Positions 1-58,902 of a stretch of 64,000 nucleotides of DNA are shown one piece after another (positions within the stretch are counted from its first letter, which is position 1; the number at the start of each line of letters is the position of its first letter). This DNA is from an uncultured Pseudomonadota bacterium. Its GTDB lineage: Bacteria; Pseudomonadota; Alphaproteobacteria; RF32; CAG-239. The notes under the pieces were generated by a model. It worked only from the letters and a program-made list of their open reading frames with translations. It ran no database searches and was not told the origin of the DNA. A program made the position numbers and the translations under genes. The DNA is taken from NCBI GenBank assembly GCA_902494875.1, contig CABUUO010000002.1, positions 32,547 through 96,546 of the forward strand. The letters run 5' to 3'.

Positions 1-1
1 C

Positions 2-316
2 GAAGAAAGCACTCCGCAAAACGGCGATGAGAACCTGGTTGAAGACCCGGTAGAAGATTGGCTTGCAGAAGAAGGCAAAACCCTGAAAACCCTGCTGACC
101 GAATGGAGCGACAAAGCCGGCTGGAGACTGATTTGGAACTCTAACCGCAATTATACATTGACTGCAGGCGCAATGTTCCGCGGACGCTTTGCCGACGTCA
201 GTTCAGCGCTGATCAGAGCTTTTGCAAGGGCGCGGCCGGCTCCGATTGCAACATTTTATAAAGGCAACCGCGTATTGGTTGTAGAGACACTGGAGGATGA
301 AAATGCATATGAATAA
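2..316 (+). CDS. C-terminal fragment of a pilus biogenesis protein encoded upstream of the secretin (PilM/TcpQ-like position)
   Basis: Reading frame 2 is open from the window edge to a TAA at 314-316 and overlaps the secretin start. The family assignment is by gene position only. Confidence 0.35.
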   Translation, partial: EESTPQNGDENLVEDPVEDWLAEEGKTLKTLLTEWSDKAGWRLIWNSNRNYTLTAGAMFRGRFADVSSALIRAFARARPAPIATFYKGNRVLVVETLEDENAYE

Positions 317-1919: not shown

Positions 1920-1939
1920 ACTTGATTTAGGAAAAAGCA

Positions 1940-3220: not shown

Positions 3221-4619
3221 TATGAAAAAAATATTTGTGACAACGGCGCTGGCGTTAATATTCGGTTTAACCTGTTCCGGAAATGTTATGGCACAGGCTG
3301 CCATTTCTTTGTCTGATGATGCAAAAAAAGCCGACACCCAATCTGCTGCCAACGAGATTCCAGATGAAATATCTCTGTTTGGCGATGACGGCGACGATAT
3401 TCTGACACCGCCGGCGAAAACCGAACCAGAAACAGCGAAAACCGAAAATAAACCGGAAGCAGCCAAAGATGACAAACAGGCTCCGTCGGAAACGGCAGCT
3501 CCGGGTCTGCCGGTTTTAGACATGCCGGCACAGCCCGAAAACGTTGAAAAGCCGCAAATTCCGGCCATTCCCGTTATCCCGGCCCCGGCGGCACAACAGG
3601 CCCCCCAGCCCGCAGCCATTCCCGAACCCAAACAGCAGGTTCCGGTCTTCAGCCAGTTGGGCAGTCAGATTATTGAAGACATTGACGACGACGTCTTTGC
3701 CAAAATGTCTGATCTTGAAAAAGAAACGGCAGTTTTGAATTTGGAACTGCGCAAAGAAAAAGTCAAAAACGACATTGAGGCTCTGCGCGCCATGCGCGAC
3801 AAAGCCCAAGAAGAGGAAGAAGCGCGCAAACACGCCGAAAAGCTTAAACAAATCGCTCTTGAAAAAGAGGAAGAGCGAAAAATCCTTTTGGAACAGCAAA
3901 AGTTAAAAAATCTTGAAATCGTTTATGAAAAAGAACGTCAGGAAAAGCTGTTAAAGGCATATAAAAACAAAATGCTGGAAGAAAGCCAGAAGTGGATAGA
4001 ACGCAATGCCGAAAATTATAAAGAAATCGCGGACTTGAAAAATGAACGGCAAAAACTTATTAATGACTTTAAGGGCAAGTTTGTCCAACTGACCAAAATG
4101 GCCGATGAAGCAACAAACGAGGCAATCCGGGTACGGGATAATTATGCCAAGACAATATCAGATCTGCAAACTCAGATATCTATTCTCAATGCTCGTCTGG
4201 AAGCAAGCGAGAAAACCAATCCGTTTGCGGAAAACGGCGGAGAACAAGCGGCTCCGCTTGAGGAAGAAGAGGCCTTAAAGCTTAGTGATTTGTATGCCGT
4301 TATGGAAATTCGCGGCAAAGGAAAAAATTTGAGCGCAAAATTGATTAACGAGAGCGGAGCACCATTCTTTGTCAAAGTGGGTACCGTGTTGCAAAGCGGA
4401 CATGTTGTTGACGAAATATCCTCAACTTATGTCCGGGCCGACAAAGAGGGCAGCAAAGATTATCTTTATTTCTCGGCCGGCGGCGTTCTTGATCAGGAAC
4501 CGGTGACCAACGAGGAGTTGAAAGTAAAGGTTTCCGATCCGGAGCAAGCTCCGGCGCCGAGCGGTATTGTTTCAAACCAAGGGATTCCCGGAATTGCTAG
4601 AGAAATGACCGTCAGATAG
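3210..4619 (+). CDS. Secreted pilus assembly protein with Pro-rich linker and long coiled-coil (PilP-like C-terminal domain)
   Basis: Signal peptide MKKIFVTTALALIFGLTCSGNVMA, preceded by a GAGGGGG ribosome-binding site. It has a Pro/Ala/Gln-rich segment, a Glu/Lys-rich heptad region and a C-terminal beta-rich domain. Confidence 0.4.
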   Translation: MHYNMKKIFVTTALALIFGLTCSGNVMAQAAISLSDDAKKADTQSAANEIPDEISLFGDDGDDILTPPAKTEPETAKTENKPEAAKDDKQAPSETAAPGLPVLDMPAQPENVEKPQIPAIPVIPAPAAQQAPQPAAIPEPKQQVPVFSQLGSQIIEDIDDDVFAKMSDLEKETAVLNLELRKEKVKNDIEALRAMRDKAQEEEEARKHAEKLKQIALEKEEERKILLEQQKLKNLEIVYEKERQEKLLKAYKNKMLEESQKWIERNAENYKEIADLKNERQKLINDFKGKFVQLTKMADEATNEAIRVRDNYAKTISDLQTQISILNARLEASEKTNPFAENGGEQAAPLEEEEALKLSDLYAVMEIRGKGKNLSAKLINESGAPFFVKVGTVLQSGHVVDEISSTYVRADKEGSKDYLYFSAGGVLDQEPVTNEELKVKVSDPEQAPAPSGIVSNQGIPGIAREMTVR

Positions 4620-4621
4620 TC

Positions 4622-6310
4622 ATGGCAGATGAGATGGAAAACGAACCGGAAGAGAAAGAAGTCAAGGATAGTCAGGAAAAACCGGCCGACGGAGTACCCA
4701 GCGTAGCGGTTTCAACCGGTCCTGTTGCGGCTCCGATTACCCAGTCTTTAGGCAAGCTGGAACTTTATTTTGCCAACGGACGAAAATTGCTCACCGTTCC
4801 CGGCGGAACTCTTAATATCAATGATGACACGCGCCGGCTTCTGGCCTTGTTCTCTGACGGAAGTTTTTTGGTAGCCGAATCACATAAGTTCGACGGACGC
4901 GTTTTGAGCTTTGAAGTTTTGGCACGCAGGAAACGGATTAACATCTTAAAACCGGTCTATCTGTCTCAAAACGAGCTTAACGCCATTTACAACTATGCCG
5001 AAAGAAACGTTGCCGACGCCGATGCCGACGAAGATCTTGACGCATTGCAAATGCAGAAAGACTTTGTGAACGTTATTGCCCGGGCCGCGGAAAAAAAGGT
5101 GTCCGATATTCACGTTGTGGTGGCAGACAGCACGCAGATTATGTTTCGCGTCAACGGCATGATGTCCATTGAAATGGAATATAACAAAGACTGGGGCGAA
5201 TCTTTTGTCCGCGCGGCCTTTGCTTCGGCGGACATTTCGGACTCCAACTATGCGCAGAACGAATTTCAGGGCGCACAGAAGCTGGGGTCGACCCCTCTGC
5301 GCGGGTCTAAAGGCAAGCTGATGCTGCCGCATAACGTTTTGGCCATCCGCTTACAGTTTAATCCGATTGCGTTTGGTTCTCAATATTTGGTCATGCGTCT
5401 GTTGTATGCCGACGACAATCCTAACGGCAGCGGCGATTTGGCATCGTTAGGACTGGGCGAATATGAAGAGAAGCTGTTTTACCGTCTGAGAGCGGTTCCG
5501 ACCGGAGTCAGCATCGTTTCCGGTCCGACCGGTTCCGGAAAATCAACGACCCTGCAAAGAAACATGATTAAACTTTTGCAGGAAAAGAATTACGAAATTA
5601 ATCTGATTACGGTGGAAGATCCGCCGGAATATCCCATTCCCGGCGCCAGACAGATGCCGGTGACAAACGCCAATACTGAAGAAGAAAAAGATGAACAGTT
5701 CACCAAAGCGCTATCGGCGGCGCTGCGTTCCGACCCTGACGTCATGATGGTCGGTGAAATTCGTTCGCTTTCGGCTGCACAATTGACTTTTAAGGGCGCT
5801 TTGTCCGGACACGGTATGTGGACCACGCTGCACGCCAACTCAGCGCCGGCAATTATCCCCCGTCTGCGCGATATGGGCGTGGAGACATTTAAGCTCGGCG
5901 ACCCGGAGCTGGTTAAAGGATTAATCGGTCAGCGTCTGTTCAGAAAGCTCTGCCCGCATTGCCGCAAATCAGTCAAGGAAATGCTTGACGAACCGGCAGT
6001 ACAGCGTCTGAAAGTAGCTTTGGGCGATTTTGGCATTGAAAACACCTATGTACGCGGTCCCGGCTGTAAGTTCTGCGGAGGTTCCGGAATCAAAGGACGT
6101 ATGAGCGTGCCAGAGATTATTCTGCCGGATGCCATGTTTTTGGAACTGATCATTAAAGGCGAAACCCGTAAAGCCATTGACTACTGGACCAGCGATCTGG
6201 GCGGCAGAACGATGAAAGACGCGGCTATCGAAAGAATGCTGAAGGGATATATTGATCTTGACGAAGTAGAACGCTGGTGCGGACTGATGGACCAGCGCCC
6301 GGTTTATTAA
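4622..6310 (+). CDS. Type IV pilus assembly ATPase (GspE/PilB/BfpD/R64-PilQ family)
   Basis: Walker A motif GPTGSGKSTT and Asp-box/His-box region. It has a C-terminal tetracysteine motif (CPHCRK...CKFCGGSG), typical of secretion ATPases. Confidence 0.85.
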   Translation: MADEMENEPEEKEVKDSQEKPADGVPSVAVSTGPVAAPITQSLGKLELYFANGRKLLTVPGGTLNINDDTRRLLALFSDGSFLVAESHKFDGRVLSFEVLARRKRINILKPVYLSQNELNAIYNYAERNVADADADEDLDALQMQKDFVNVIARAAEKKVSDIHVVVADSTQIMFRVNGMMSIEMEYNKDWGESFVRAAFASADISDSNYAQNEFQGAQKLGSTPLRGSKGKLMLPHNVLAIRLQFNPIAFGSQYLVMRLLYADDNPNGSGDLASLGLGEYEEKLFYRLRAVPTGVSIVSGPTGSGKSTTLQRNMIKLLQEKNYEINLITVEDPPEYPIPGARQMPVTNANTEEEKDEQFTKALSAALRSDPDVMMVGEIRSLSAAQLTFKGALSGHGMWTTLHANSAPAIIPRLRDMGVETFKLGDPELVKGLIGQRLFRKLCPHCRKSVKEMLDEPAVQRLKVALGDFGIENTYVRGPGCKFCGGSGIKGRMSVPEIILPDAMFLELIIKGETRKAIDYWTSDLGGRTMKDAAIERMLKGYIDLDEVERWCGLMDQRPVY

Positions 6311-6326
6311 AGTTTAGGAGAGAATT

Positions 6327-7460
6327 ATGGCAGGCGAACAGGAAAAAAGAAGCGCGTCCAATTCGATGCAAAAGGCTATGCGCAAGCTCAATACGGTTGA
6401 GGAATATTACGCTAAGCTGATTTGTAACTTTTCCAATGAAGCACGATTAAAACTCTATCGCAAAATCGCCTCGCTGATGAGAAACCGCTTTTCTCTGATG
6501 AGTGCTTTGGATATGCTTCATGACAGCGCCAGCGACGGCGGCAAAAGTCCGGGAGAACCGATGGCTATCGCCATTGCCTGCTGGGGTCGGGCGCTCAACA
6601 ACGGTTTGACGTTTTCCGACGCTCTGAAAGGCTGGGCTCCGGACCGTGAACGACTGATGCTGTCGGTCGGTGACGTCTCAGACCTGGAAGGCGCTCTGCT
6701 CAACCTTATTCGTGTTACCGAAGGTTCAACAAAGATGATCCGTCCGATTATCGGCGCAATTGCTTACCCGACCTTTTTGTTTTTGATGGCGGTTTTGATT
6801 ATTTACGGTATCGGCGTATATATGGTGCCGCCGATGTTGGATGCGGCGCCCGGCGTTCGTTGGCGAGGACTGGCAAAAGATCTGGTTGATGTTTCGGCCT
6901 GGATTCAACAATATTGGCTGGTTGCATTTTCAGCACTGCCGATCACAATGCTGGTCATCTACCTGACAATCGGACTCTGGACCGGACCTATCCGCGCCAT
7001 TGTCGATAATATGCCGCCTTATTCACTTTATAAGGTGTTCGTCGGCATCAGTTGGCTGCTGGCCTTGTCCGCACTGGTTAAGGGCGGTACGCCGGTATCA
7101 ACGGCGATGCGGGCCTTGAGGCGCGACGCGACCCGCTATTTGAAAGAAAGAATTGACAAGACGCTGGTCTTCATCAACAACGGTGACAACCTTGGTATTG
7201 CCCTGAAAAAAACCGGACTTGATTTTCCCGATAAGGAAGTTATTGCCGATTTAAAAATTTATTCGGAATTGGATAACTTTGAAGAAGCTCTGGAATCGCT
7301 GGCCAATCAATGGCTGGAGGAGTCCGTTTATCTGATTGAGCAGAAGGCGGCTTTGTTAAATATGGCGGCAATTCTAAGCGTCGGCGGCGTTATCGCCTGG
7401 GCCGTCATGGGCACCTTTGAAATGCAAGACCAAATTACCAGCAGTATGGGACAAGGCTGA
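6327..7460 (+). CDS. Pilus inner-membrane platform protein (GspF/PilC/BfpE/R64-PilR family)
   Basis: 377 aa polytopic membrane protein immediately after the ATPase. An AGGAG ribosome-binding site precedes it. Confidence 0.65.
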   Translation: MAGEQEKRSASNSMQKAMRKLNTVEEYYAKLICNFSNEARLKLYRKIASLMRNRFSLMSALDMLHDSASDGGKSPGEPMAIAIACWGRALNNGLTFSDALKGWAPDRERLMLSVGDVSDLEGALLNLIRVTEGSTKMIRPIIGAIAYPTFLFLMAVLIIYGIGVYMVPPMLDAAPGVRWRGLAKDLVDVSAWIQQYWLVAFSALPITMLVIYLTIGLWTGPIRAIVDNMPPYSLYKVFVGISWLLALSALVKGGTPVSTAMRALRRDATRYLKERIDKTLVFINNGDNLGIALKKTGLDFPDKEVIADLKIYSELDNFEEALESLANQWLEESVYLIEQKAALLNMAAILSVGGVIAWAVMGTFEMQDQITSSMGQG

Positions 7461-8047
7461 TGGAAAAGGCAAAAATAATTTTTAATAAAGCAATAAAAAT
7501 TTTTCATTCACCGGAAAGAATCGGCATTGCCGCGGCCGGAGCCGTTGTCATAATTGCCGCGGCAGCTTGGTTTTTGCTTAAAAGTCCGAAACCAGACGCC
7601 AATATTGTTACGGCCGGCAATCAAATCAGCCTGTTGACAGATAATGTACGAAAATTTTACCGTAATCGTCCCGATGCTTGGGGACTAAATACGCAATCTG
7701 TTTTGAAAAATGCAATTGCTCCCCAGGAAATGGTTCAAAACGGCAAATTGATTAACGCATTAGGAAAGGAAACCTTGGTCGGTGCGGATTCAAACGGCAC
7801 GACGGTTATGCCCGGCAGCAGAAATTTTGCCATTACTTTCAGAGGACTGGATTATGAAGAATGCGTTGAACTGTCCGCACTGGCTCCCGACGAAAAGACA
7901 GCATTGAGCCTTACTTCGGAAACGATTGCCAACGAGACAGAAACAATGTTTATCTGGGGCGGAGAACATCCGCTTCCGATAACAAGAAAAGCTGCGGAAG
8001 AATTCTGCAAACAACAAAATTCTCTCATTTGGAACATATTGTTATAG
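7460..8047 (+). CDS. Divergent pilin-like protein (minor pilin candidate)
   Basis: N-terminal hydrophobic helix. Its C-terminal region matches the pattern of the two downstream pilins (F-x-G-L-x-x-[DE]-x-C-V-x-L-[AS], with a second Cys near the C-terminus). Its start overlaps the platform gene's stop (TGATG). Confidence 0.4.
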   Translation: MEKAKIIFNKAIKIFHSPERIGIAAAGAVVIIAAAAWFLLKSPKPDANIVTAGNQISLLTDNVRKFYRNRPDAWGLNTQSVLKNAIAPQEMVQNGKLINALGKETLVGADSNGTTVMPGSRNFAITFRGLDYEECVELSALAPDEKTALSLTSETIANETETMFIWGGEHPLPITRKAAEEFCKQQNSLIWNILL

Positions 8048-8127
8048 TTTCTGTTTTACAGAATAAAGTTATATGTTTCAAAGCGTAATTATGACTAAAG
8101 ATAGGCTTATTTATCTTTTATTAATAA

Positions 8128-8142
8128 GTTATAGTTAAGATG
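8128..8142 (+). promoter_or_regulatory. Candidate -10 / conserved upstream motif gttataGttaAgatg for pilin gene 1
   Basis: Same 15-mer (2 mismatches) found upstream of pilin gene 2; contains TATAGT. Confidence 0.25.
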
Positions 8143-8183
8143 TGAGAAGAAAAAACTTTGAAGTGTGTTTTAGGAGAAAAGAG

Positions 8184-8798
8184 ATGAAGAGTTTATTCAA
8201 AAATGAGCAGAGCGGACGTTCCATGGTGGAAATGCTCGGCGTGCTCGCGATTATCGGCGTATTGTCGGTCGGCGGTATCTCCGGTTATTCGAAAGCCATG
8301 GCTAAATTTAAACTGACCAAGGCGCAAGACCAGTTGTCCATGATGATTATGAACATCAGAACCGCATTTGCAACCTCCCCTGGTTATCCGGGTTTAACAA
8401 CAAAAAATGCTATTGATTACAAGCTGGTATCTCAGGAAATGGTCGTTGCCGGAAGTACTTCGTTGATTAACGCATTTGGCGGCGATACGATTGTTGAAGC
8501 AATTAACGGAGCGGATGGTACTCCTAACGGTGCATTCCAGATTGTATTCTCCGGTCTCGGTAAAGATGTCTGCGTCAGCTTGGCTACCTCTGATTGGGGT
8601 ACTGACGGCTTAATTGGTATCGGCGTTGCCTCTACCAAAATCAGTAAAATTACAGGTACGCCGTCCGCTGCAGTTTCATTTGCAGGTGGCGGCAGTTTGA
8701 ACGGGCCTAAGGCTCTGCCGTTGTCTATTTCTGACGTTCGTAAGTCCAATGCCTGTGGTTCGGATAACACCAACTCGATTACCTGGGTTTATAACTAA
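8184..8798 (+). CDS. Type IV prepilin (major pilin candidate 1)
   Basis: Leader ...NEQSG followed by RSMVEMLGVLAIIGVLSVGG, with Glu at +5 after the predicted Gly cleavage site. An AGGAG ribosome-binding site precedes ATG 8184. An upstream in-frame GTG at 8142 is an alternative start. The C-terminus has a disulfide pair. Confidence 0.75.
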   Translation: MKSLFKNEQSGRSMVEMLGVLAIIGVLSVGGISGYSKAMAKFKLTKAQDQLSMMIMNIRTAFATSPGYPGLTTKNAIDYKLVSQEMVVAGSTSLINAFGGDTIVEAINGADGTPNGAFQIVFSGLGKDVCVSLATSDWGTDGLIGIGVASTKISKITGTPSAAVSFAGGGSLNGPKALPLSISDVRKSNACGSDNTNSITWVYN

Positions 8799-8824
8799 AG
8801 TTATAAGAGGCATAATTTTCTATA

Positions 8825-8856
8825 AAAAGGTGTGTTTTGACACACCTTTTTATTTT
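8825..8856 (+). terminator. Rho-independent terminator after pilin gene 1
   Basis: GC stem (ggtgtg...cacacc) followed by a T-run. Confidence 0.5.
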
Positions 8857-8874
8857 ACCCGAAATAAATCTATG

Positions 8875-8889
8875 TTATAATTAGGATGA
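8875..8889 (+). promoter_or_regulatory. Candidate -10 / conserved upstream motif gttataAttaGgatg for pilin gene 2
   Basis: Contains TATAAT. It is the paralogous motif to 8128-8142. Confidence 0.25.
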
Positions 8890-8915
8890 TATTATTTAAT
8901 TAAGAGGGGTCAAAA

Positions 8916-9503
8916 ATGAACAGAAACGAACAATCCGGAAGATCAATGGTTGAAATTCTCGGCGTTTTGGCCATTGTTGGTGTGCTTTCTGTCGGCGGTA
9001 TTGCCGGCTATTCAAAAGCGATGGCTAAATTTAAGCTGACAAAGGCACAAGACCAACTGCAGATGATGGTGATGAATATCCGCACGGCTTACGTCACTTC
9101 CCCGGGATTTCCGGATCTTAATACCGCGCATGTAATTGAATATAAACTGGCCTCCTCCGAAATGATGGTTGATTCAAAAAATCTGCTGAACGCCTTTGGC
9201 GGAAAGGTTTATGTTGAGGCAACCGAAAATCTGGAAAGAAATTCCGACGGCGCGTTTGCTATTCTTTATGCCGGTCTGGGGCGGGACTCTTGCGTCAGTC
9301 TGGCAACCTCCGACTGGGGTACGGACGGACTAATCGGGATTTACGTTGATTCGACGACCGACCCGATTAACAAGATCGAAAATCCTAACGCATTGTCCAA
9401 AGAACAACTCAAACAACCTTCAGAACTTCCCATTTCGCTGACAACGGCACGAGAAAAATGCAGTTCGGACAATAACAACCTTATAACCTGGTATTATCTT
9501 TAA
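8916..9503 (+). CDS. Type IV prepilin (pilin paralog 2)
   Basis: The N-terminal 60 aa are nearly identical to the upstream pilin (MNRNEQSGRSMVEILGVLAIVGVLSVGGIAGYSKAMAKFKLTKAQDQL). The C-terminal domain is diverged. Confidence 0.75.
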   Translation: MNRNEQSGRSMVEILGVLAIVGVLSVGGIAGYSKAMAKFKLTKAQDQLQMMVMNIRTAYVTSPGFPDLNTAHVIEYKLASSEMMVDSKNLLNAFGGKVYVEATENLERNSDGAFAILYAGLGRDSCVSLATSDWGTDGLIGIYVDSTTDPINKIENPNALSKEQLKQPSELPISLTTAREKCSSDNNNLITWYYL

Positions 9504-9510
9504 GACTGTA

Positions 9511-9538
9511 AAAGCACCGATTACGGTGCTTTTTTTAT
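9511..9538 (+). terminator. Rho-independent terminator after pilin gene 2
   Basis: agcaccg-atta-cggtgct followed by TTTTTTT. Confidence 0.6.
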
Positions 9539-9567
9539 GTCGTTCCGGTGCTTTCTTTTGTTCTGTT

Positions 9568-9745
9568 ATGCCGGACCTGATCCGGTATCCAGATCAAACA
9601 TTGATTCCTGCTTCCACTTGGACTCCGAGGCAAGCCCGGAGTGACCCAGCGTGGGCGTGCAGCGCATTATTTGTCATGTTTCGCTACGCTCAACATCCCA
9701 GCCGATTAACAAGGCTGAGGCCCTTCGACAAGCTCAGGGTGACAA
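9568..9745. repeat. Intergenic repeat element, copy A (resembles a small non-autonomous mobile element)
   Basis: Shares conserved blocks with 43268-43465: gccggacctgatccgg, tgacccagcgtgggcgtgc[ag]gcgcattatt, cagccgattaa, gctgag, ttcgaca, tcagggtgacaa. It starts with the palindrome ccggacctgatccgg. Confidence 0.6.
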
Positions 9746-9754
9746 CAAAGACAT

Positions 9755-11194
9755 CTAAAACAGACTATGTATGATTTTTACCATATCCGCCATTTCTATT
9801 TTTTGCGGCAAAGGGTTCACTTTTTGCGACTTGGAATAAACCAGCAGCGGAATATTCCGGTAGCCGAATTCTTCAACGCCGTGGTCTCCGTAAATGACAA
9901 ACAGCGAATCGTCCGGGCTGTTTTCGACCAGCCAACGCAATGACTGATCGACAAAGTTTACGGCATTGTAATAGTCATATTTCCGCTCCGGCGTTTTTGC
10001 AAACAGCGGACGCGGATTGTTTTTAACTTTATACTCGCTATGAGAACTGAGCGTAATGATAAAATTAAAAAGCTTATCATCCGAATGTTTTCGATTTTGT
10101 TTCAAGACAAAGTCAAACAGATCCCTGTCCGATATTCCCCAAAAATCGTCAGGATACCTGTCTTTCATATCCTCGTAGAAATAAATATCTTCATATTGCT
10201 GAGCTCTGACATGAGGACCGCGGTTGAAAAAGTCGGATTTAAAATTATGATAGAAACTCGTATGATATCCATTTGCTTTGGCTTTTTGCGACAGAGATTC
10301 CAAACGCGGCCAAACTTCCTTCGGAAGAAACATATGATAGATGATGGTAAACTCTTTTTCGGTAAAACCGCCGCTGTTCACAAAAAAATCGGTATTGGCA
10401 GAGGCGCCGTGAACCTTCTGGTTGACTTCGGCAAGCGTGCCTTCGGCGGCAAGACCGTTTAGAAACGGCGTCAATTCCCGTCCGTCAACTTTTTTATTGA
10501 TAACGTTATATGTCAGGCTCTCGGTTTGAATGACATAAATATGCCGACTTCCGGGGAAGCTGTATTTTATTTGCGGTTCACTTTCAGACAATTCAATAAT
10601 TTCATCTAAAATTTTACCGCTGCGTTTGCTTATTACCGTCTCATAAAGCCAGCAGGAGCGATAGCCGAAATTGAGGCAGGCATCATTAAAGAAACTCTGA
10701 GAAAAAAACAATATGGATACCGAGGCAAAGCTCGCATATATCAGCAAAGCCAGCGGAATAAGAAAAATCCAGAAAAAACGGCGATATTCTCTCAATATCG
10801 GATAGCAGCGGTTATAAAGCCCAAAATTGCCAAGACCGACAAGCAAAACTATCAAACTTTTATAATTTAAAACCGCTCCCGGAACCTTACTTAAAAACTC
10901 CGCCCCTTCACGATACTGAAACCAGATAATCGACAAAGACAGCGGCGGAACAAAATAGTTATGATACAGCAGCAGTCCCGAAGTTAAGACTATCTGAAAA
11001 GCTAGGGCCAGCCAGACCAAAATCCGGGGAAGAAAAAACAATATGCCCCAGAAACACATTCCGAAGATTAAAATAAAAAATCCGGCGGACATTATGTCCA
11101 AATCTGGAAAATACAATTTATTGGCTACAACGCCTTCCACACCCATCAAAAGTGCCAAAAGCAATATAAAAATGAACTTTTTATTATCTTTCAT
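9755..11194 (-). CDS. Membrane-anchored sulfatase-family transferase (LtaS / phosphoethanolamine- or phosphoglycerol-transferase-like)
   Basis: N-terminal domain with about 5 transmembrane helices. The C-terminal domain is alkaline-phosphatase/sulfatase-like (…LSSHSEYK…, VIYGDHG). It sits between the pilin genes and the PilT-like ATPase. Confidence 0.6.
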   Translation of the reverse strand: MKDNKKFIFILLLALLMGVEGVVANKLYFPDLDIMSAGFFILIFGMCFWGILFFLPRILVWLALAFQIVLTSGLLLYHNYFVPPLSLSIIWFQYREGAEFLSKVPGAVLNYKSLIVLLVGLGNFGLYNRCYPILREYRRFFWIFLIPLALLIYASFASVSILFFSQSFFNDACLNFGYRSCWLYETVISKRSGKILDEIIELSESEPQIKYSFPGSRHIYVIQTESLTYNVINKKVDGRELTPFLNGLAAEGTLAEVNQKVHGASANTDFFVNSGGFTEKEFTIIYHMFLPKEVWPRLESLSQKAKANGYHTSFYHNFKSDFFNRGPHVRAQQYEDIYFYEDMKDRYPDDFWGISDRDLFDFVLKQNRKHSDDKLFNFIITLSSHSEYKVKNNPRPLFAKTPERKYDYYNAVNFVDQSLRWLVENSPDDSLFVIYGDHGVEEFGYRNIPLLVYSKSQKVNPLPQKIEMADMVKIIHSLF

Positions 11195-11244
11195 ACTCTC
11201 TGCCGGCCTTTATTTAACAATTTATTTACTGAACTATATGACAA

Positions 11245-12252
11245 TTGAAAAAGATTGTACAGTTTATTTACAGAAAGTGTGATTATATGGTTAAACTAAA
11301 CAGTATCCGGTTTTCTGACATCTATATTACGCCGGACAAAACCTGCTTTATTCCCGACGGCGTGACCCAGAACGGTCTGGCCATTATCAAACCCGAAGAT
11401 TTTGACGTTTTTTATAATTTGATTGAGGAATCTTGGGACGGAGAAAATCCCAGCTATTCGGTACTGTATGAAAACATATTTTACCGCGTTGAACGCACCG
11501 TAGCCATTTACGGCGTTCAATACTGCGCCCGAAAGATGCCCGAGAAAGTGCCGCCGCTGGCGGCTCTTAACTTTCCGCGCGAACTGTGCCGTCATCTGCT
11601 TTCGCTCAGTTCGGCCAGCGGCCTGATTTTATGGTCAGGACCGACCGGCGCAGGAAAAACGACTTCCATCTCCGGACTGCTGAAAGAATATCTGACCATG
11701 GAAGGCGGTTTTGCCTATACTATCGAAGACCCAACCGAAATGCCTTTGGACGGCATTTACAAATCAATGAAAGGCGGCTTGGGACTTTGTAAACAAACCC
11801 AGCCGGTTAACGGCAACTGGGGTGCTTCGCTGAAGTCTGCCCTGCGTTCAAAACCACGTTTCATTTTCGTCGGCGAAATCCGCACGCCGGATACGGCCAG
11901 CGAAGTTCTGCGCGCCGCAACTTCAGGCCATCTGGTTTTATCGACCATCCACGCCAACAACATTGCCGACGCCATTAACTCGGTAGTTAAATATGCCTCT
12001 TCCACGACCATGAGCGAAGAACTGGCCTATGACCTGTTTTCACGCGGCATTCTCGGCGTAATGCACCAAACGCTGATCGGCGTTCATGACAAAAGACCGG
12101 CAATCAATTATCTATTTGCCAATCCGGATACGACCAAGGGCGACCAAGTCCGCGGCATTATCAAAGGCGGCAATCTCAATCTCGGAACATCCATTGAAAC
12201 GCAGATGACCAGAATGCGCAAAGGAATGAGCCTGTTTCCCGACTTGTCTTAA
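11245..12252 (+). CDS. PilT/PilU-like pilus retraction ATPase
   Basis: 335 aa with Walker A motif SGPTGAGKTTS and the conserved Asp/His boxes of PilT-class ATPases. An alternative start is at 11287. Confidence 0.7.
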   Translation: MKKIVQFIYRKCDYMVKLNSIRFSDIYITPDKTCFIPDGVTQNGLAIIKPEDFDVFYNLIEESWDGENPSYSVLYENIFYRVERTVAIYGVQYCARKMPEKVPPLAALNFPRELCRHLLSLSSASGLILWSGPTGAGKTTSISGLLKEYLTMEGGFAYTIEDPTEMPLDGIYKSMKGGLGLCKQTQPVNGNWGASLKSALRSKPRFIFVGEIRTPDTASEVLRAATSGHLVLSTIHANNIADAINSVVKYASSTTMSEELAYDLFSRGILGVMHQTLIGVHDKRPAINYLFANPDTTKGDQVRGIIKGGNLNLGTSIETQMTRMRKGMSLFPDLS

Positions 12253-12283: not shown

Positions 12284-12712
12284 ATCCCAGGGGAAAACGA
12301 TCCATTCGTCCGGCATTTCTTTTTCATAGATATCGACAACCGGTGCTCCGGCAGATTTGGCATAAACCGTTACATATTTGGCCTGCGGATAAATGGCCCG
12401 CAAAATGCGAAACGTACGGCCGCTGTCTGACAAATCGTCGACAATCAGCGTTTTTTCGTTTACGGTACCGGGATGGCCGGAAATCTCAATATCTTCGTCG
12501 GCGCGGCGGTCATAGTTATTGTCATAGCTGGCAATATTGATTGACTGCGTATTGCGGATATTCAGCTCATAGGCTATTATACCGGCCGGCAGCAGACCGC
12601 CGCGGCTGATGGCGACAATTTTATCATATTCGCCGGAAGCTTTGATTTTTTGGCACAGTTTTTTGGTATGTTGATGAAATTCATCCCATTTAATATAAAT
12701 CTTATCAGTCAT
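12281..12712 (-). CDS. gpt: Xanthine-guanine phosphoribosyltransferase
   Basis: Full-length similarity to E. coli Gpt recalled from memory (IVAISRGGLLPAG..., VDDLSDSGRT...). 143 aa. Confidence 0.8.
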   Translation of the reverse strand: MTDKIYIKWDEFHQHTKKLCQKIKASGEYDKIVAISRGGLLPAGIIAYELNIRNTQSINIASYDNNYDRRADEDIEISGHPGTVNEKTLIVDDLSDSGRTFRILRAIYPQAKYVTVYAKSAGAPVVDIYEKEMPDEWIVFPWD

Positions 12713-12720
12713 AGGCAGTT

Positions 12721-13251
12721 TTATCCGTGTTGGGCTTTCAGTTTGTAAATATATTCAATAACATCTTCGTCATCCCAGTCTGCACTGCCGCGAATCCGGC
12801 CGATTTCCTCACCGCTTTTGTTGATGAGAACTGTATGCGGAGAGGTGAAAACACCGAGATCTTCCGCCAGCTTTCCGTCTTTGTCGGTATAAAACTCAAC
12901 ATCGGGAGCCTTGAATTTTTCAAGAAAACGACGCTGTTCTCCGGCATCGGCCCATTCTTCTTCCGGAGAAAGGAGAAGCAGACGAATGCCGTTGCCTTTG
13001 GTCTTTTGCGTAAATCCATTCAGGCTTTCAAGCTCTTTGATGCAGGGTGTGCAATGACGGGACCATAAATTGAGCAAAACAAAATCACCCTTGAAATCAG
13101 CTATTTTTACCTTGTGGCCGGCTTCGTCATAAATGGCACGGTCGGGCATCGGACGCGGGTAGTCAAAGATATTTACGGCATCTTTCGCAGACGCATCGAA
13201 ACAGAACAAAAAAGCCAATAAAATCCATTTTGCATATTTTTTGACTATCAT
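12721..13251 (-). CDS. Periplasmic thiol-disulfide oxidoreductase, TlpA/ResA-like thioredoxin fold
   Basis: Signal peptide and a WSRHCTPC (CxxC) active-site motif. Confidence 0.65.
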   Translation of the reverse strand: MIVKKYAKWILLAFLFCFDASAKDAVNIFDYPRPMPDRAIYDEAGHKVKIADFKGDFVLLNLWSRHCTPCIKELESLNGFTQKTKGNGIRLLLLSPEEEWADAGEQRRFLEKFKAPDVEFYTDKDGKLAEDLGVFTSPHTVLINKSGEEIGRIRGSADWDDEDVIEYIYKLKAQHG

Positions 13252-13325
13252 CTATTAATAACTTCTTTTTTTGGTTTTGATTAAACTCTGATTAAGAGTA
13301 TATAGGTATTATACCTAAATAAACA

Positions 13326-13478
13326 ATGAAAAAAGGCCTGATGATGAAAAAAATAATGCGATATATGCTGGCAGCCGTTGTAATTTCGACAATTTTTGCA
13401 ATTACGGCCTGCGGAAAAGTTTCCGGCGCAGTTCCGATTGAAGGCAGCGGCTATCCGCATACATATCCCCGCCGATAA
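13326..13478 (+). CDS. Small lipoprotein (50 aa) upstream of the vWA gene
   Basis: MKKGLMMKKIMRYMLAAVVISTIFAITACGK... with a lipobox. It is not in the ORF track because it is under 60 aa. Confidence 0.3.
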   Translation: MKKGLMMKKIMRYMLAAVVISTIFAITACGKVSGAVPIEGSGYPHTYPRR

Positions 13479-13497
13479 GACTTTTGAGGAGCGTAAT

Positions 13498-14190
13498 ATG
13501 GTTTCTGCCGACGATAATTTTATTGATGAGATGATTCCTTATGTGGAATTTGCCGATAACGCCAACGAACGGACTCCGTGCGTGCTGGTTTTGGACTGTT
13601 CGGGCTCAATGCGCGGCGAACCGATTAAACAGCTCAATGCCGGACTGAAAGCTCTGGAAAAGGAACTCAAAGAAGACATCGACGCCAGTTCGAGAGTGCA
13701 GCTCCTGATTATCAAAGCTTTCGGCAAAGATGAGGCTGTGGTCTCTTCCGACTGGATTGACGCCATGAACTTTACGGCTCCGACCATGGAAGCAGGCGGA
13801 CTGACCCCGCTCGGCAAAGCCATGGAGCTGGCATTGCAAAAGATTGAAGAACAAAAATGCCTGTATGACAGCTGCGGCATTACGTCTAAACGGCCGTGGA
13901 TTTTTCTTATCAGCGACGGAGAACCGACCGATTATGACTGGGAGATCATTGCTGAAAAATGCCGTTATGCCCAGCAGAACAAAAAGGTGGTCGTCCATGC
14001 CGTAGGCACGCAAGGCGCCAACCTTGAAAAACTGGCCAAATTTTCGATTATGTCGCCCAAACGTCTGACCGGACTGAAATTTACCGAATTTTTCCTCTGG
14101 CTCAGCCGCAGCGTTTCCTGCATATCCAAAGCGGCTCCGAATGTTCCGGATTTATTAGAAGATACTGGCGACTGGGATGAAGACAAATAA
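13498..14190 (+). CDS. von Willebrand factor A domain protein (YegL-like)
   Basis: Metal-binding motif DCSGSM, typical of vWA. The start was chosen at MVSADD because a GAGGAG ribosome-binding site lies 7 nt upstream. About 230 aa. Confidence 0.75.
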   Translation: MVSADDNFIDEMIPYVEFADNANERTPCVLVLDCSGSMRGEPIKQLNAGLKALEKELKEDIDASSRVQLLIIKAFGKDEAVVSSDWIDAMNFTAPTMEAGGLTPLGKAMELALQKIEEQKCLYDSCGITSKRPWIFLISDGEPTDYDWEIIAEKCRYAQQNKKVVVHAVGTQGANLEKLAKFSIMSPKRLTGLKFTEFFLWLSRSVSCISKAAPNVPDLLEDTGDWDEDK

Positions 14191-14920
14191 AATCAAAGTA
14201 ATTGCCTCAAGCATCCGCGGGCCTCTGCACATAAACAAGGGCCTGCCTTGTCAGGACTGCTTTCGTTATTCCCGCGGCGGAAAAAATTTCGTCGCGGTGG
14301 TTTCCGATGGTGCAGGTTCGGCAAAATTCGGCAGAAACGGTGCAAAAATCGTTTGCGAAACCCTGATTGACCTGCTGAAAAACGCTCCGTTTTCCGATGC
14401 TAAAAAACATATTCGGAAAGCCATAGGCATTGCACGGGAAAAACTGGAAAGGCACCGTTTCAACAAGACCAAAGACGAAAAGGGAATCATGGATTTTTCG
14501 GCAACCGTGGTCGGTGTCATCTGCAATAAGAATCAGGGCCTGTTTTTCCATATCGGCGACGGTGCGGCACTGGCTTTTCGGGACGGGGAATATGAAAGAT
14601 TTACCGCTTCTCCTCCCGAAAACGGCAATTTTTCATGCGAAACCTATTTTTATACCCAGCCTGACTGGGAAAGAAATCTGCGCTTTACGGCTTTTGAAAA
14701 CGCCGATACCGTTTTTCTGATGAGCGACGGGCTGACCAATTTTTCCTTTGCACAGGATTACCAAAGCATTGAAAAAGGATTTATTCTGCCGATTAACAAG
14801 TTTTTGAACGAAACCGGCAGCAAGCCCAAGGCTGAAAGAGCCTTGGCCAATACGCTGAACAACGCGGAAGCCAGAAGGCTGAATTCTGATGACAAGACTC
14901 TTTTATGGGCGAGGCTATAA
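14177..14920 (+). CDS. PP2C-family Ser/Thr phosphatase (YegK/PphC-like)
   Basis: PCQDCF..., VVSDGAGS, MSDGL are PP2C metal-binding motifs. The gene overlaps the vWA gene by 14 nt. Confidence 0.7.
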   Translation: MKTNKIKVIASSIRGPLHINKGLPCQDCFRYSRGGKNFVAVVSDGAGSAKFGRNGAKIVCETLIDLLKNAPFSDAKKHIRKAIGIAREKLERHRFNKTKDEKGIMDFSATVVGVICNKNQGLFFHIGDGAALAFRDGEYERFTASPPENGNFSCETYFYTQPDWERNLRFTAFENADTVFLMSDGLTNFSFAQDYQSIEKGFILPINKFLNETGSKPKAERALANTLNNAEARRLNSDDKTLLWARL

Positions 14921-14922
14921 TC

Positions 14923-16386
14923 ATGGAAAACAGCAACGAATCCGTTGAATATAATGCCATTTACGGCGACGGGCATTTCGAAAAAATCAAACTCGGCGAA
15001 CTCATCAATAAAGGCGGTGCGGCCGGCAAAATTTATCTTAACGCCAATAACCCCAATATGGTGGCCAAGATTTTTCATAATCGCGGCAAAAGTTCCACCA
15101 ACCGACAGAAGCTGGAGGCAATGCTCTTAAACCGGCCCCATTTTCCGGCTGCAGTCAAAGACGGCGTAAACTATGTGCAGATCGCCTGGCCAGAAGCGAT
15201 GCTTGAGGACGAAGACGGCTTTTGCGTCGGTTATCTGATGCCGCTGATTAAAATGAGTGACGCCGTTTCGCTTGACCACCTGATGCAAAAAGCCATTCGC
15301 AAAAAACTGAAACTGCCGGAAAGTTATGCCTACAGGATATTTGCAGCCTACAATCTGGCGTCAATGGTAACGGCACTGCATAAATGCGGACATTATATCG
15401 TCGATATGAAACCTTCCAACGTTTCGGTATACAAAGACAACATGATGGTGGCCATGGTTGACTGCGACGGCTTTTCCATAAAAGGGGAAAAGAACCGTTA
15501 TCCGGCCGAATTTGTCAGCGAAGAATACATTTACCCCGAGGGAATGGAACAATCCTGCGACGAAATGGGCGAGGAGCAGGATAAATTTGCCCTGGCAGTA
15601 ATCATTTTCAAACTTCTGAATAACGGCATTCATCCATTTTCAGGCGTTCCGCGCAAAAACGACGCCGAAATGCTGACCATTCAGAATCGGATTGAACAAT
15701 ATCATTACGCCTATGGCCTGTGGCCGGACACATATCAGGCGCCGCACCCCTACTCGATTCACGAATATTTTGACAAAGCTACGCTGGAATTGTTTGAACG
15801 GGCTTTTGCCAAAGGCGGAGAACGCCCCAGCGCCTACGAATGGCAGGAACATCTGTGGAAGCTGATGCATCATTTGAAAACCTGTAAAAAAGACGCCAAT
15901 CATGTTTATTTTACGTCCAAAGGCTGCGGCCTTTGCATGGTGGAAGAAAAATTTCATCATGACATGAGCGATCTACGCAGACAAAAATCAACCCCAGAGA
16001 CGGTTCGGGGGCTGGAAATCGAATCTCTGAAACTGGAAAATCTGCAAAAAAACAAAAAGGAAAAACTGGCTTTTGACAACAAAATGCAATTGATTTCCGG
16101 CGCGGCTCTGGTGATTTATATGTTGTTTTTTGCCTTTTTATACAAGCTGCTGCTGCCGGCGGCCGATCATATTTTGCAAATGGGGATCGGCCTACAGGCG
16201 ATTGTTGTTACCCTGACAATGCTCGGCATTAACAGTCTGTTTAAAAAATATTACGAACTGCTGCCGATTTTAAAAAATCGAACCATTACCCAGATGCTGC
16301 AGGTCTATGCGCTGATCTGCATCATCATTGCCTTAGTTTCAATTAACGATATTCCCAAAAATTTACTGGATTTAGCCGCCGATTAA
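14923..16386 (+). CDS. Hanks-type Ser/Thr protein kinase with C-terminal membrane region (YegI-like)
   Basis: Glycine-rich loop GGAAGKIY, a VAKIF lysine, catalytic loop VDMKPSN and a DCDGF segment in place of DFG. The C-terminal 120 aa have 3-4 hydrophobic helices. The start is immediately after the PP2C stop. Confidence 0.7.
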   Translation: MENSNESVEYNAIYGDGHFEKIKLGELINKGGAAGKIYLNANNPNMVAKIFHNRGKSSTNRQKLEAMLLNRPHFPAAVKDGVNYVQIAWPEAMLEDEDGFCVGYLMPLIKMSDAVSLDHLMQKAIRKKLKLPESYAYRIFAAYNLASMVTALHKCGHYIVDMKPSNVSVYKDNMMVAMVDCDGFSIKGEKNRYPAEFVSEEYIYPEGMEQSCDEMGEEQDKFALAVIIFKLLNNGIHPFSGVPRKNDAEMLTIQNRIEQYHYAYGLWPDTYQAPHPYSIHEYFDKATLELFERAFAKGGERPSAYEWQEHLWKLMHHLKTCKKDANHVYFTSKGCGLCMVEEKFHHDMSDLRRQKSTPETVRGLEIESLKLENLQKNKKEKLAFDNKMQLISGAALVIYMLFFAFLYKLLLPAADHILQMGIGLQAIVVTLTMLGINSLFKKYYELLPILKNRTITQMLQVYALICIIIALVSINDIPKNLLDLAAD

Positions 16387-16491
16387 AAAAATGCCGTAAT
16401 TTTTTTTCGCATATAGTTGATTTTTGACTCTACAAAAAATATTATTATGGTATTGTAACACAGTTAAAAATATAAATTAGAGGATAAAACT

Positions 16492-17880
16492 TTGAAGACA
16501 CTAAATCCCATAATGATTTCCGGCAAGGAAGTCCTGCCTCTGGTAGAAGGCGGCAAAGGCATCAACGGTTCTGACGGCAGAAGCAGCGGCGCCTGGGCAC
16601 ACGAAAACTGCGTCGGCACTTTTTCCGGCGTCAGCCCTGACTACTATGACGGTTTCGGAAACGTTATTTTGGAAAAATATTTTAAGAAAAGCCGCAAAGA
16701 GCGTCATGACGAAATGATTGAACAATCCATCAAAGGCGGCATTGCCCAAGCACAGATTGCGCACGAAGTTTCCGGCGGAAACGGACGCATTCACATGAAT
16801 ATGCTGTGGGAACTCGGCGGCTCCGAACAGATTTTAACCGGCGTTCTGGAAAAGGCCAAAGGACTGATTCACGGCGTTACCTGCGGAGCCGGCCTGCCCT
16901 ACAAACTGGGGGAAATCGCTTCCCGCTTCGGCGTCTATTATTACCCGATTGTCTCTTCGGCACGCGCTTTTCAGGTTTTATGGAAAAGAGCCTATGCCAA
17001 TTTCAAAGAGTTTTTGGGCGGCGTGGTTTATGAAGATCCATGGCTGGCCGGCGGACATAACGGCCTTTCCAATGCCGAAGACCCAAACAAACCGCAGTCT
17101 CCGTACGAACGCCTGGTTGAGCTGCGCAGAGTTATGAACAATCTGGGCCTCAGCAATCTGCCGATTATCATGGCCGGCGGCATCTGGTCGCTGAAAGATT
17201 GGGAAGACTACATCGACAATCCGGACATCGGCAAAATCGCGTTTCAGTTCGGCACCCGACCGATGATCACCAAAGAAAGTCCCATCAGCGAAGCCTGGAA
17301 AAAGGTGATGATGCAAGTGAAAAAAGGCGACGTTATTTTACAAAAATTCAGTCCGACCGGTTTTTTCTCTTCGGCAATAAAAAATACATTCCTTGAAAAA
17401 CTGATTGAGCGCAAAAACGGTGAAATTGCATATTCAACGGAACAAAATCCCGAATTTTGCTTCCCGTTGAAAATCAGCGAAAACAAAACCTATTACATTC
17501 GCGCCGAAGACGTTGAAAAAGCTAACCGACAGAAACAGGCAGGGCTGACCGAAATAAAGGAAACGCCGGACAACACGGTGGTCTTTATGACGCCGGAAGA
17601 CTGGAAACAGATGAAAGAAGACCGCGCCAACTGCGTAGGCTGCCTGTCACAGTGCCAGTTTTCAACATGGTCACAGGCACACGGCACGACCGGAAAAATT
17701 CCGGATCCGCGTTCCTACTGCATTCACAAGACGCTTTATGAGGTCAGCCACAACGGCAGCATTAAAGACAACCTTCTGTTTGCCGGACATCAGGTTTACC
17801 GTTTTGCAACGGATCCATTGTATCGCAACGGCATTCCTTCGGTAAAAGAACTGATTGAAAAAATCAAATCAGGAGAATAG
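16492..17880 (+). CDS. FMN-dependent oxidoreductase, nitronate monooxygenase / FabK-like (PF03060-like), long form
   Basis: TIM-barrel flavoenzyme motifs (VTCGAGLPY, IMAGGIWS). 462 aa with a TTG or downstream ATG start. Confidence 0.4.
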   Translation: MKTLNPIMISGKEVLPLVEGGKGINGSDGRSSGAWAHENCVGTFSGVSPDYYDGFGNVILEKYFKKSRKERHDEMIEQSIKGGIAQAQIAHEVSGGNGRIHMNMLWELGGSEQILTGVLEKAKGLIHGVTCGAGLPYKLGEIASRFGVYYYPIVSSARAFQVLWKRAYANFKEFLGGVVYEDPWLAGGHNGLSNAEDPNKPQSPYERLVELRRVMNNLGLSNLPIIMAGGIWSLKDWEDYIDNPDIGKIAFQFGTRPMITKESPISEAWKKVMMQVKKGDVILQKFSPTGFFSSAIKNTFLEKLIERKNGEIAYSTEQNPEFCFPLKISENKTYYIRAEDVEKANRQKQAGLTEIKETPDNTVVFMTPEDWKQMKEDRANCVGCLSQCQFSTWSQAHGTTGKIPDPRSYCIHKTLYEVSHNGSIKDNLLFAGHQVYRFATDPLYRNGIPSVKELIEKIKSGE

Positions 17881-17887
17881 TTCCGAT

Positions 17888-17919
17888 AAAAAAGCCCTGA
17901 ATTATCAGGGCTTTTTTTA
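17888..17919. terminator. Bidirectional Rho-independent terminator
   Basis: aaaaaagccctga-atta-tcagggcttttttt. Confidence 0.65.
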
Positions 17920-18423
17920 ATCAATTACTTCATTCGGATAAACGCCGAAAAGGTTGCTTTTGGGAATCCAGCCTTCGACACTGGCAAACTGAACCCGGCA
18001 AAAAGCATTGTCTGCCGGACATTTTATCACCTCGCCGACAACTTCGTCTTCAACCTTGGCAATGATCCGGGACTTATAGTCAGCTTTATTGTAAATGTTG
18101 TTTTCTCCGGGCGTAATAACCTTAACAAAACGCTTGCCGGCAAGCATGGACTTGTGCACCCAGGATTCCGACCCTTGCCAGTCTTTTATTTTGCGCCACA
18201 GTTCAAATTCAGCCCGGATTTCAACCGGAGCGTTTTTCTGCATGTAAACCCATTCTATCGGGTAACGGGCACCGGGACCGGAACGGGCATTGATATAATT
18301 TGAGCGCAGAGACGCAAAACGCGGCAGCGCCAAACCGCTTTCGCCGTCATCGGGGAGGGTTTGCGCCTGAGCGGACGTCATCGCCAGCATCAGGCTGAAA
18401 ATTGCCGTAAAAACCGCCTTCAT
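17917..18423 (-). CDS. Secreted protein with two bacterial SH3-like domains
   Basis: Signal peptide ending AQA. It has two repeats of an ...ARSGPG... / ...GW(V/I)...S.L pattern. Confidence 0.5.
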   Translation of the reverse strand: MKAVFTAIFSLMLAMTSAQAQTLPDDGESGLALPRFASLRSNYINARSGPGARYPIEWVYMQKNAPVEIRAEFELWRKIKDWQGSESWVHKSMLAGKRFVKVITPGENNIYNKADYKSRIIAKVEDEVVGEVIKCPADNAFCRVQFASVEGWIPKSNLFGVYPNEVID

Positions 18424-18508
18424 TTGATCCTCTTTTAATTATTTATTATTTTATTTGAGATAATTATAACTACATATATTAAACAAAACGTAAAAAATTG
18501 AGAGAGGA

Positions 18509-58891: not shown

Positions 58892-58902
58892 GGATCGCGT
58901 CA

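Follow-up and report, generated by a model that had tools for sequence, protein, structure and literature searches.

We describe here a four-gene operon in a 64,000-nucleotide (nt) stretch of DNA (hereafter, the window) from an uncultured Pseudomonadota bacterium of the Alphaproteobacteria (RF32; CAG-239; GenBank assembly GCA_902494875.1, contig CABUUO010000002.1, positions 32,547 to 96,546). The four genes occupy positions 13326-16386, are co-directional on the forward strand and encode a small lipoprotein, a von Willebrand factor A (vWA) protein, a PP2C-type phosphatase and a Hanks-type kinase. With a probability of roughly three in four, we read this locus as a lipoprotein gene joined to a phosphorylation triad of the YegL/PphC/YegI type, similar to the TerY-P systems, that serves vertically inherited chromosomal signaling rather than acting as a mobile defense cassette. 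Computational analysis established the identity of the genes, the conservation of their catalytic and metal-binding residues and of the operon, and the fold and membrane segments of the kinase.

The lipoprotein open reading frame (ORF; 13326-13478, +) is the first gene of the operon and is followed by the genes for a cytoplasmic, YegL/TerY-like vWA protein (13498-14190, +; 230 aa; identified by Pfam, BLASTP and its metal-binding motif), a PphC/YegK-like Ser/Thr phosphatase (14177-14920, +; 247 aa; Pfam PP2C_2 and BLASTP) and a YegI-like, membrane-anchored Ser/Thr kinase (14905-16386, +; 493 aa; Pfam Pkinase, BLASTP and AlphaFold2). Pfam E values were far beyond chance for the phosphatase (PP2C_2, 4.8e-40 over the full length), the kinase (Pkinase, 3.7e-10) and the vWA protein (VWA, 3e-6), as well as for the NMO-family gene that follows downstream (NMO, 5e-10). 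The last three operon genes, which the original prediction had described as co-directional and overlapping or abutting, overlap by 14 nt (vWA/PP2C) and 16 nt (PP2C/kinase); an alternative kinase start, ATG 14923, lies 2 nt past the PP2C stop codon. In the mechanical ORF list, the vWA frame opens at TTG 13396. Given a GAGGAG Shine-Dalgarno sequence 7 nt upstream of ATG 13498, and relatives called at 230-231 aa, this ATG is almost certainly the true start of a 230-aa protein, and the vWA gene thus does not overlap the lipoprotein ORF. The spacer between the lipoprotein gene and the divergently oriented tlpA contains a putative sigma-70-type promoter (TTGATT - 16 nt - TATATA; 13277-13304, +), both blocks of which are kept when the spacers of 77 lineage loci (63-97 nt) are aligned with MAFFT, and these hexamers would be the promoter of the operon. 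The operon structure itself is deduced from the overlapping genes together with this conserved promoter-like element 5′ of the lipoprotein gene. An Rfam scan of positions 12600-18500 reached no family threshold.

Direct BLASTP comparison with the E. coli K-12 proteins bore out the proposed YegL/YegK/YegI assignment for all three triad members, with 42% identity of the vWA protein to YegL (E = 3e-50), 25% identity of the phosphatase to PphC (YegK) over the full length (E = 5e-14) and 28% identity of the kinase to YegI over aa 26-349 (E = 2e-30). The E. coli yegL-pphC(yegK)-yegI genes share the order of the window genes and likewise overlap, with the K-12 order interrupted by yegJ. Both phosphatases are of the PP2C_2 type, and both kinases carry a DxD motif instead of DFG, a CHCC motif after the kinase domain and a predicted inner-membrane anchor. 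There are, however, differences between the two systems. The window kinase has a canonical D-x-K-P-x-N catalytic loop, whereas that of YegI reads D-V-N-Q-N-S; the window kinase ends after three hydrophobic helices, whereas YegI has two, followed by ~210 cytoplasmic residues with a helix-hairpin-helix-like stretch; and, unlike E. coli yegLKI, the window operon has an added lipoprotein gene in front and a fixed housekeeping context.

The catalytic apparatus of the kinase is intact in its conserved residues. The motifs that the original prediction had pointed out, namely DCSGS in the vWA protein and VDMKPSN and DCDGF in the kinase, were all found in their places. Within the kinase domain (~aa 15-320), the VDMKPSN catalytic loop contains D167 (nt 15403-15405), K169 and N172, and DCDGF, at the DFG position, contributes D186 and D188 (D186-C-D188, nt 15460-15468). 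These five residues and K55 (nt 15067-15069) were invariant across 46 kinase family members; when YegI was added to the alignment, K55, D167, D186 and D188 were still invariant, while K169 and N172 were not. Around the activation region (nt 15430-15480, aa 176-192), the family consensus reads LDCDGFSI. K55, D167 and D186-C-D188 align with K39, D141 and D159-S-D161 of YegI, so that the catalytic Lys/Asp pair, the feature on which the kinase assignment had been made to depend, is present at positions essential in the E. coli enzyme. In YegI, the substitutions K39D and D141N each abolish autophosphorylation, and changing the DSD motif to DFG or DSG yields an inactive protein; the enzyme autophosphorylates on serine and prefers Mn2+ (Rajagopalan and Dworkin, 10.1101/819920).

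An AlphaFold2 model of the kinase built from the family alignment (mean pLDDT 92, pTM 0.75) was matched best, in a Foldseek search of the PDB, by the kinase domain of M. tuberculosis PknB (5u94; E = 2e-9, probability 1.00, target-normalized TM-score 0.66). As modeled, the kinase has a Hanks protein-kinase fold. A PDB search with the kinase sequence returned weak phosphorylase kinase matches only (E = 0.004). Just past the kinase domain lies the CHCC motif C327-x5-H333-x7-C341-x2-C344 (15883-15936, +), which is invariant both in a set of 28 family members and in the set of 46, YegI included. TerY-P kinases have been described with a fused C-terminal zinc ribbon (PMC11090510), to which this predicted zinc-binding site would correspond. 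A Pfam search found no domain in kinase residues 316-493.

The C-terminal part of the kinase also agrees with the polytopic membrane region attributed to it beforehand. Kyte-Doolittle analysis placed three hydrophobic segments at ~aa 393-417, 424-444 and 462-482 (anchor region 16081-16350, +), and the AlphaFold2 model has helices at 377-410, 412-448 and 459-481, preceded by a linker helix. Lys/Arg residues precede helix 1 and also occur in the stretch that joins helix 2 to helix 3, which would fit an N-in, C-out topology without an extracytoplasmic domain. At the same hydrophobicity threshold, three segments were counted in 83 of 120 lineage kinase homologs and two in 36. Conservation within the kinase is lowest in this membrane region (median identity 53%, minimum 27%). 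In the majority of the distant relatives, only one hydrophobic segment is present, and variable domains such as SH3_3 come after it.

In the phosphatase, the metal-binding motifs QD27, D44-G45, G127-D128-G129, D184-G185 and D238-D239 are invariant. D44 aligns with D46 of PphC, the residue changed to Asn in an earlier study that also reported dephosphorylation of YegI by PphC in vitro (10.1101/303594). In one distant relative (locus L089, 5221-5954), PP2C is called as two ORFs of 184 and 64 aa that jointly cover the full window protein, and this split may reflect a frameshift or a pseudogene. The vWA protein, in turn, has a complete metal ion-dependent adhesion site (MIDAS) composed of D33, S35 and S37 (DCSGS, nt 13594-13608), T103 and D140, all of which are invariant in an alignment with the E. 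coli protein and four distant relatives. Kyte-Doolittle analysis detected no hydrophobic segment in it, and a PDB search with its sequence gave no match.

More broadly, modules of this kind go by the name of TerY-P triads (Anantharaman, Iyer and Aravind 2012). In the definition relayed by citing papers (PMC11090510, PMC4978471), such a triad comprises a TerY-like, MIDAS-bearing vWA protein, a phosphatase of the PP2C family and a Ser/Thr kinase whose C terminus is fused to a zinc ribbon. The same three components are encoded in the window. As far as those papers describe them, TerY-P triads are typically mobile and occur in Ter, restriction or CoCoNuT contexts, whereas the window triad is stand-alone and syntenic and has a membrane-anchored kinase. 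Judged from sequence, the module is a YegLKI/TerY-P triad that displays all the defining features open to testing, and its kind is already known.

We next consider how widely, and in which surroundings, the triad is conserved. Genome loci were taken as the best 80 of 449 stretches matched by a family alignment in a genome collection, and these 80 were all from the lineage of the window and each from a different species. Lineage neighborhoods were scanned by tblastn with the window proteins in 86 loci, and counts below refer to those loci that cover the gene concerned. The closest genome match (98% identity) was the metagenome-assembled genome (MAG) 'uncultured Alphaproteobacteria bacterium BRZ_KF__bin25', and the relatives include 'Proteobacteria bacterium CAG:495'. 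In line with conservation of the three genes as a unit, which the original prediction had made a point of, the vWA and PP2C genes precede the kinase gene in 85 of 85 lineage loci, all from gut alphaproteobacterial MAGs, and the order vWA-PP2C_2-kinase recurs in four of four distant metagenomic relatives (kinase identity 36-48% by tblastn; other C-terminal domains) and in both plasmids inspected (Azospirillum and Sphingobium). The kinase core alone (aa 20-350) retrieved 6,999 cluster representatives at E <= 0.001, and at the stricter cut-off of E <= 1e-30 there were 645.

Within the lineage, the vWA gene stands out. It was the most conserved neighborhood gene in 80 of 80 loci with at least five comparable genes, with a median identity to the window protein of 89.9% (minimum 85.6%), compared to 81.8% for NMO, 72.5% for the PilT-like ATPase, 70.8% for the kinase, 61.0% for PP2C, 59.8% for Gpt and 55.1% for TlpA; the ranking is the same when the distant relatives and E. 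coli are compared. At four-fold degenerate sites, identity was 34-43% for all genes. Because these sites are near saturation while the vWA protein remains ~90% identical, its conservation is attributed to purifying selection and not to recent transfer, and the same observation argues for vertical inheritance under strong constraint. Such constraint is unlike the expectation for an arms-race sensor and suggests, from the sequence comparison, several partners in contact with the vWA protein, of which one or more would be highly conserved.

This bears on an alternative reading, an anti-phage role of the module as in the TerY-P defense system (Gao et al. 2020): on sensing infection, the triad would set off growth arrest or some other effector. 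That system follows the same vWA-phosphatase-kinase logic, and TerY-P-like modules protect against T7-like phages (PMC7699616, PMC11090510). Some family members do reside in mobile or conflict contexts, to which extent the conflict role suggested in the original prediction applies: 53 plasmid records carry a homolog, 22 of them conjugative; the plasmid triads adjoin GIY-YIG nucleases, DNA methyltransferases and an integrase; and, among the distant triads, one has a GmrSD_N-domain neighbor and one has caspase-like (Peptidase_C14) neighbors. In addition, the window kinase weakly matches the defense kinases PD-T4-6, MkoA and PglW. The suggestion does not hold for the stable housekeeping context found here, however, in which the triad keeps its place beside tlpA in every informative locus from the 80 species, with housekeeping genes around it. 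The other window genes include gpt, tlpA, genes for an M20 peptidase, an alpha-amylase, MalQ and a sugar transporter, rpsA, a gene for a GyrB-family topoisomerase subunit, dnaK and five tRNA genes; the window is ordinary housekeeping chromosome and not a defense island. Of the PADLOC TerY-P models, only TerY was matched, at E = 0.025, and neither the phosphatase nor the kinase model gave a match, a behavior shared by E. coli YegLKI. Whereas the kinase of the defense version is fused to an OB-fold (PMC11090510), that of the window has none, and no effector gene was found nearby. Membership in the Gao-type defense system was thus rejected on the grounds of faint or unrelated PADLOC kinase matches and the missing OB-fold. 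Also, selection on the vWA protein is extremely strong and purifying, not diversifying. Carriage by phages was likewise dismissed: the sole match in the phage collection, MT836238.1 ('UNVERIFIED: Bacteriophage sp.', human feces), is a mislabeled bacterial contig, recognizable as a chromosome fragment of the same lineage since it carries, within 1-11670, M20, SH3, pilT, tlpA, the lipoprotein gene, the triad and NMO. Taken together, a defense function of this particular module appears unlikely.

The same family resemblance raises the option of an accessory role in tellurite or metal stress (Ter), as first proposed for TerY proteins. The vWA protein is indeed TerY-like with an intact metal site, and TerY-P triads have been proposed to be metal-sensing phospho-switches (PMC11090510). 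However, neither Ter genes nor genes for DNA restriction or processing were present within 15 kb around the module, the remainder of the window having been sampled in part only; such genes are the typical context of these triads rather than a strict requirement, and the position of the module was fixed over the 80 genome loci. With the TerY model of PADLOC reached only at the faint E value given above, we regard this role as highly improbable.

The chromosomal signaling that we favor instead might receive its input at the envelope, and here the first gene of the operon comes into play. The small upstream gene noted in the original prediction is real and encodes a lipoprotein, with a signal peptide and a lipobox (...AITAC|GK), yet its length had to be corrected: homologs begin at an MKK that matches ATG 13344, the probable start, giving 44 aa and not 50. 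The mature lipopeptide comprises 22 residues (CGKVSGAVPIEGSGYPHTYPRR). In 78 of 78 distinct homologs, a signal peptide and the Cys-Gly-Lys lipobox context were present, and the mature peptide follows the pattern C-G-K-[VM]-S-x-P-x-P-x-[EP]-G-S-G-Y-P-H-[TS]-Y-P-[RK]-x, with SGYPHxYP nearly invariant and the signal peptide variable. No Pfam family matches this protein. In a profile search, the top 120 matches were all 39-70 aa long and none was annotated in Pfam. Identity with LptM was considered and discarded, as the Pfam model LptM_cons matched one relative only, at E = 0.48, and covered just the signal peptide and lipobox.

The lipoprotein gene was found in 84 of 84 informative lineage loci, its stop codon always 9-20 nt before the vWA start, while no homolog was detected beside the distant triads, the plasmid triads or E. 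coli yegLKI. This answers the question, raised in the original prediction, whether it is a conserved partner: by gene linkage, the lipoprotein is a partner of the triad within the gut alphaproteobacterial lineage only. This linkage, and the near invariance of the mature peptide, would fit a refinement of our preferred reading, with which it is compatible, in which the lipoprotein, and perhaps TlpA, provides a periplasmic input sensed by the kinase helices. tlpA, which encodes a thiol:disulfide oxidoreductase, is the divergent neighbor in 82 of 82 informative lineage loci, whereas gpt, pilT, NMO, SH3 and M20 vary. The kinase, moreover, lacks any extracytoplasmic domain; in the majority of the distant relatives, one membrane segment is followed by a variable C-terminal domain (such as SH3_3). 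On the other hand, the poor conservation of the kinase membrane region is a better fit to a plain anchor than to a receptor for an invariant peptide, the absence of a lipoprotein homolog beside the distant triads and E. coli yegLKI likewise speaks against this refinement, and conserved linkage alone is no proof of a functional link. Nor is the mature peptide a TlpA substrate, because the lipidated Cys is its only cysteine. We therefore treat input at the envelope as a tentative extension, somewhat doubtful as it stands.

A pathway that crosses the envelope with similar parts is the threonine phosphorylation by P. aeruginosa PpkA/PppA, which combines a Hanks kinase, a PP2C, a vWA domain and the outer-membrane lipoprotein TagQ in the H1 type VI secretion system. 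It serves as an analogy only. The vWA domain of PpkA is periplasmic and fused to the kinase, whereas that of the window is a separate, cytoplasmic protein, and neither FHA nor type VI secretion genes accompany the window triad.

Beyond the operon, the neighborhood offers two further candidates for association. One is the oxidoreductase gene (NMO family; 16492-17880, +) that starts 105 nt past the kinase stop codon on the same strand, as had been noted; the spacer has promoter-like hexamers, and no terminator was predicted in it. As a conserved partner of the triad, a possibility that had also been raised, this gene failed: it is not beside the kinase gene in 13 lineage loci, where SH3 and M20 are directly next, is displaced in three others and is absent from all distant triads. 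It is a dispensable neighbor and lies outside the module, although it may be transcribed together with it. The encoded protein (462 aa; lineage median identity 82%) continues for ~110 residues past its Pfam match (aa 130-348), with a cysteine cluster (CVGCLSQCQ...C). Between the convergent NMO and SH3 genes, at 17827-17961, sub-threshold Rfam matches pile up on both strands (rimP leader, STnc430 and Phe leader; E = 0.05-0.6), which is probably a bidirectional terminator hairpin and none of those RNAs.

The other candidate is a type IVb (bundlin-like) pilus, which the module might regulate. A pilus cluster at 297-9503 encodes a secretin, a PilO-like protein, a T2SSE ATPase, a T2SSF platform protein and three bundlin/PilS-like pilins, and a PilT-like ATPase gene (11245-12252) is split from it by an opposite-strand gene for a sulfatase/LtaS-like membrane protein (9755-11194). 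In relatives, the cluster stays beside the gpt-tlpA-triad block even when it is on the other side (L002 versus L005), and one distant triad adjoins Tad pilus genes. In 31 of 86 lineage loci, however, the PilT-like gene is not within 7 kb; no pilus genes occur near the other distant triads, the plasmid triads or E. coli yegLKI; and adjacency is the sole link. Regulation of the pilus is accordingly very unlikely to be what the module is for. The Tad case itself concerns locus L088 (1-4012; 605-aa kinase), whose neighbors are two TadE genes, a Tad/TadG-like gene, RcpC/CpaB and an AAA_31 ATPase gene, and which represents a second triad beside type IV filament genes. Elsewhere in the window, at 54203-60900 (+), two large adjoining ORFs of 1562 and 665 aa had no Pfam match at E <= 1e-5, and this region has an unusually strong AT skew (0.23-0.25).

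Returning to the phosphorylation triad as a chromosomal signaling module, we infer enzymatic activity, a substrate or adaptor role of the vWA protein, an input signal and an output, as follows. Three C-terminal helices would anchor the kinase in the inner membrane and leave its catalytic domain and zinc motif on the cytoplasmic side. Like YegI, the kinase would autophosphorylate in a divalent-cation-dependent manner and would phosphorylate partner proteins on Ser/Thr. The phosphatase would reverse these modifications and reset the switch, and the vWA protein would be either a substrate or a MIDAS-dependent adaptor through which a conserved cellular partner is coupled to the phosphorylation state. 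As for the input, the locus itself contains no candidate other than the lipopeptide.

Three observations weigh against this interpretation. First, the serines that YegI autophosphorylates are not kept: in the BLASTP alignment, the window kinase shows N, C and G where YegI has S153, S160 and S162. Its activation sites may therefore differ from those of YegI, with S191 and S205 as examples of residues that may be phosphorylated in the activation loop instead. Second, a single-sequence AlphaFold2 model of the vWA protein reached a pLDDT of 46 and was unusable. Third, for E. coli YegLKI itself, no expression condition has been defined, and the same is true of a physiological substrate, a signal and a phenotype (PMC13232886; 10.1101/819920).

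A more far-reaching scenario, which we offer as speculation and consider rather improbable, is that the CAG:495 lineage domesticated a mobile triad into a core envelope-signaling operon. Here, the 22-residue lipopeptide (CGK-x-S-x-P-x-P-x-x-G-S-G-Y-P-H-x-Y-P) would have been acquired as a fourth component and would act as the periplasmic input or partner of a sensor-less, three-helix kinase, and the vWA protein would link the switch to an essential, conserved target.

Given that YegLKI/TerY-P triads are widespread, the presence of one in this genome will not surprise the specialist, and no new kind of system is revealed; what is useful is the domesticated context, the strength with which the vWA protein is constrained and the conservation of the lipopeptide. 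In this lineage, the three genes have the character of a core set, with a fixed position, a constrained vWA protein and a compact kinase devoid of accessory domains, which argues that some triads at least perform housekeeping signaling and not defense. For the family, this would make the vWA protein the component whose partner deserves a search, and the lipopeptide a concrete candidate for the input.

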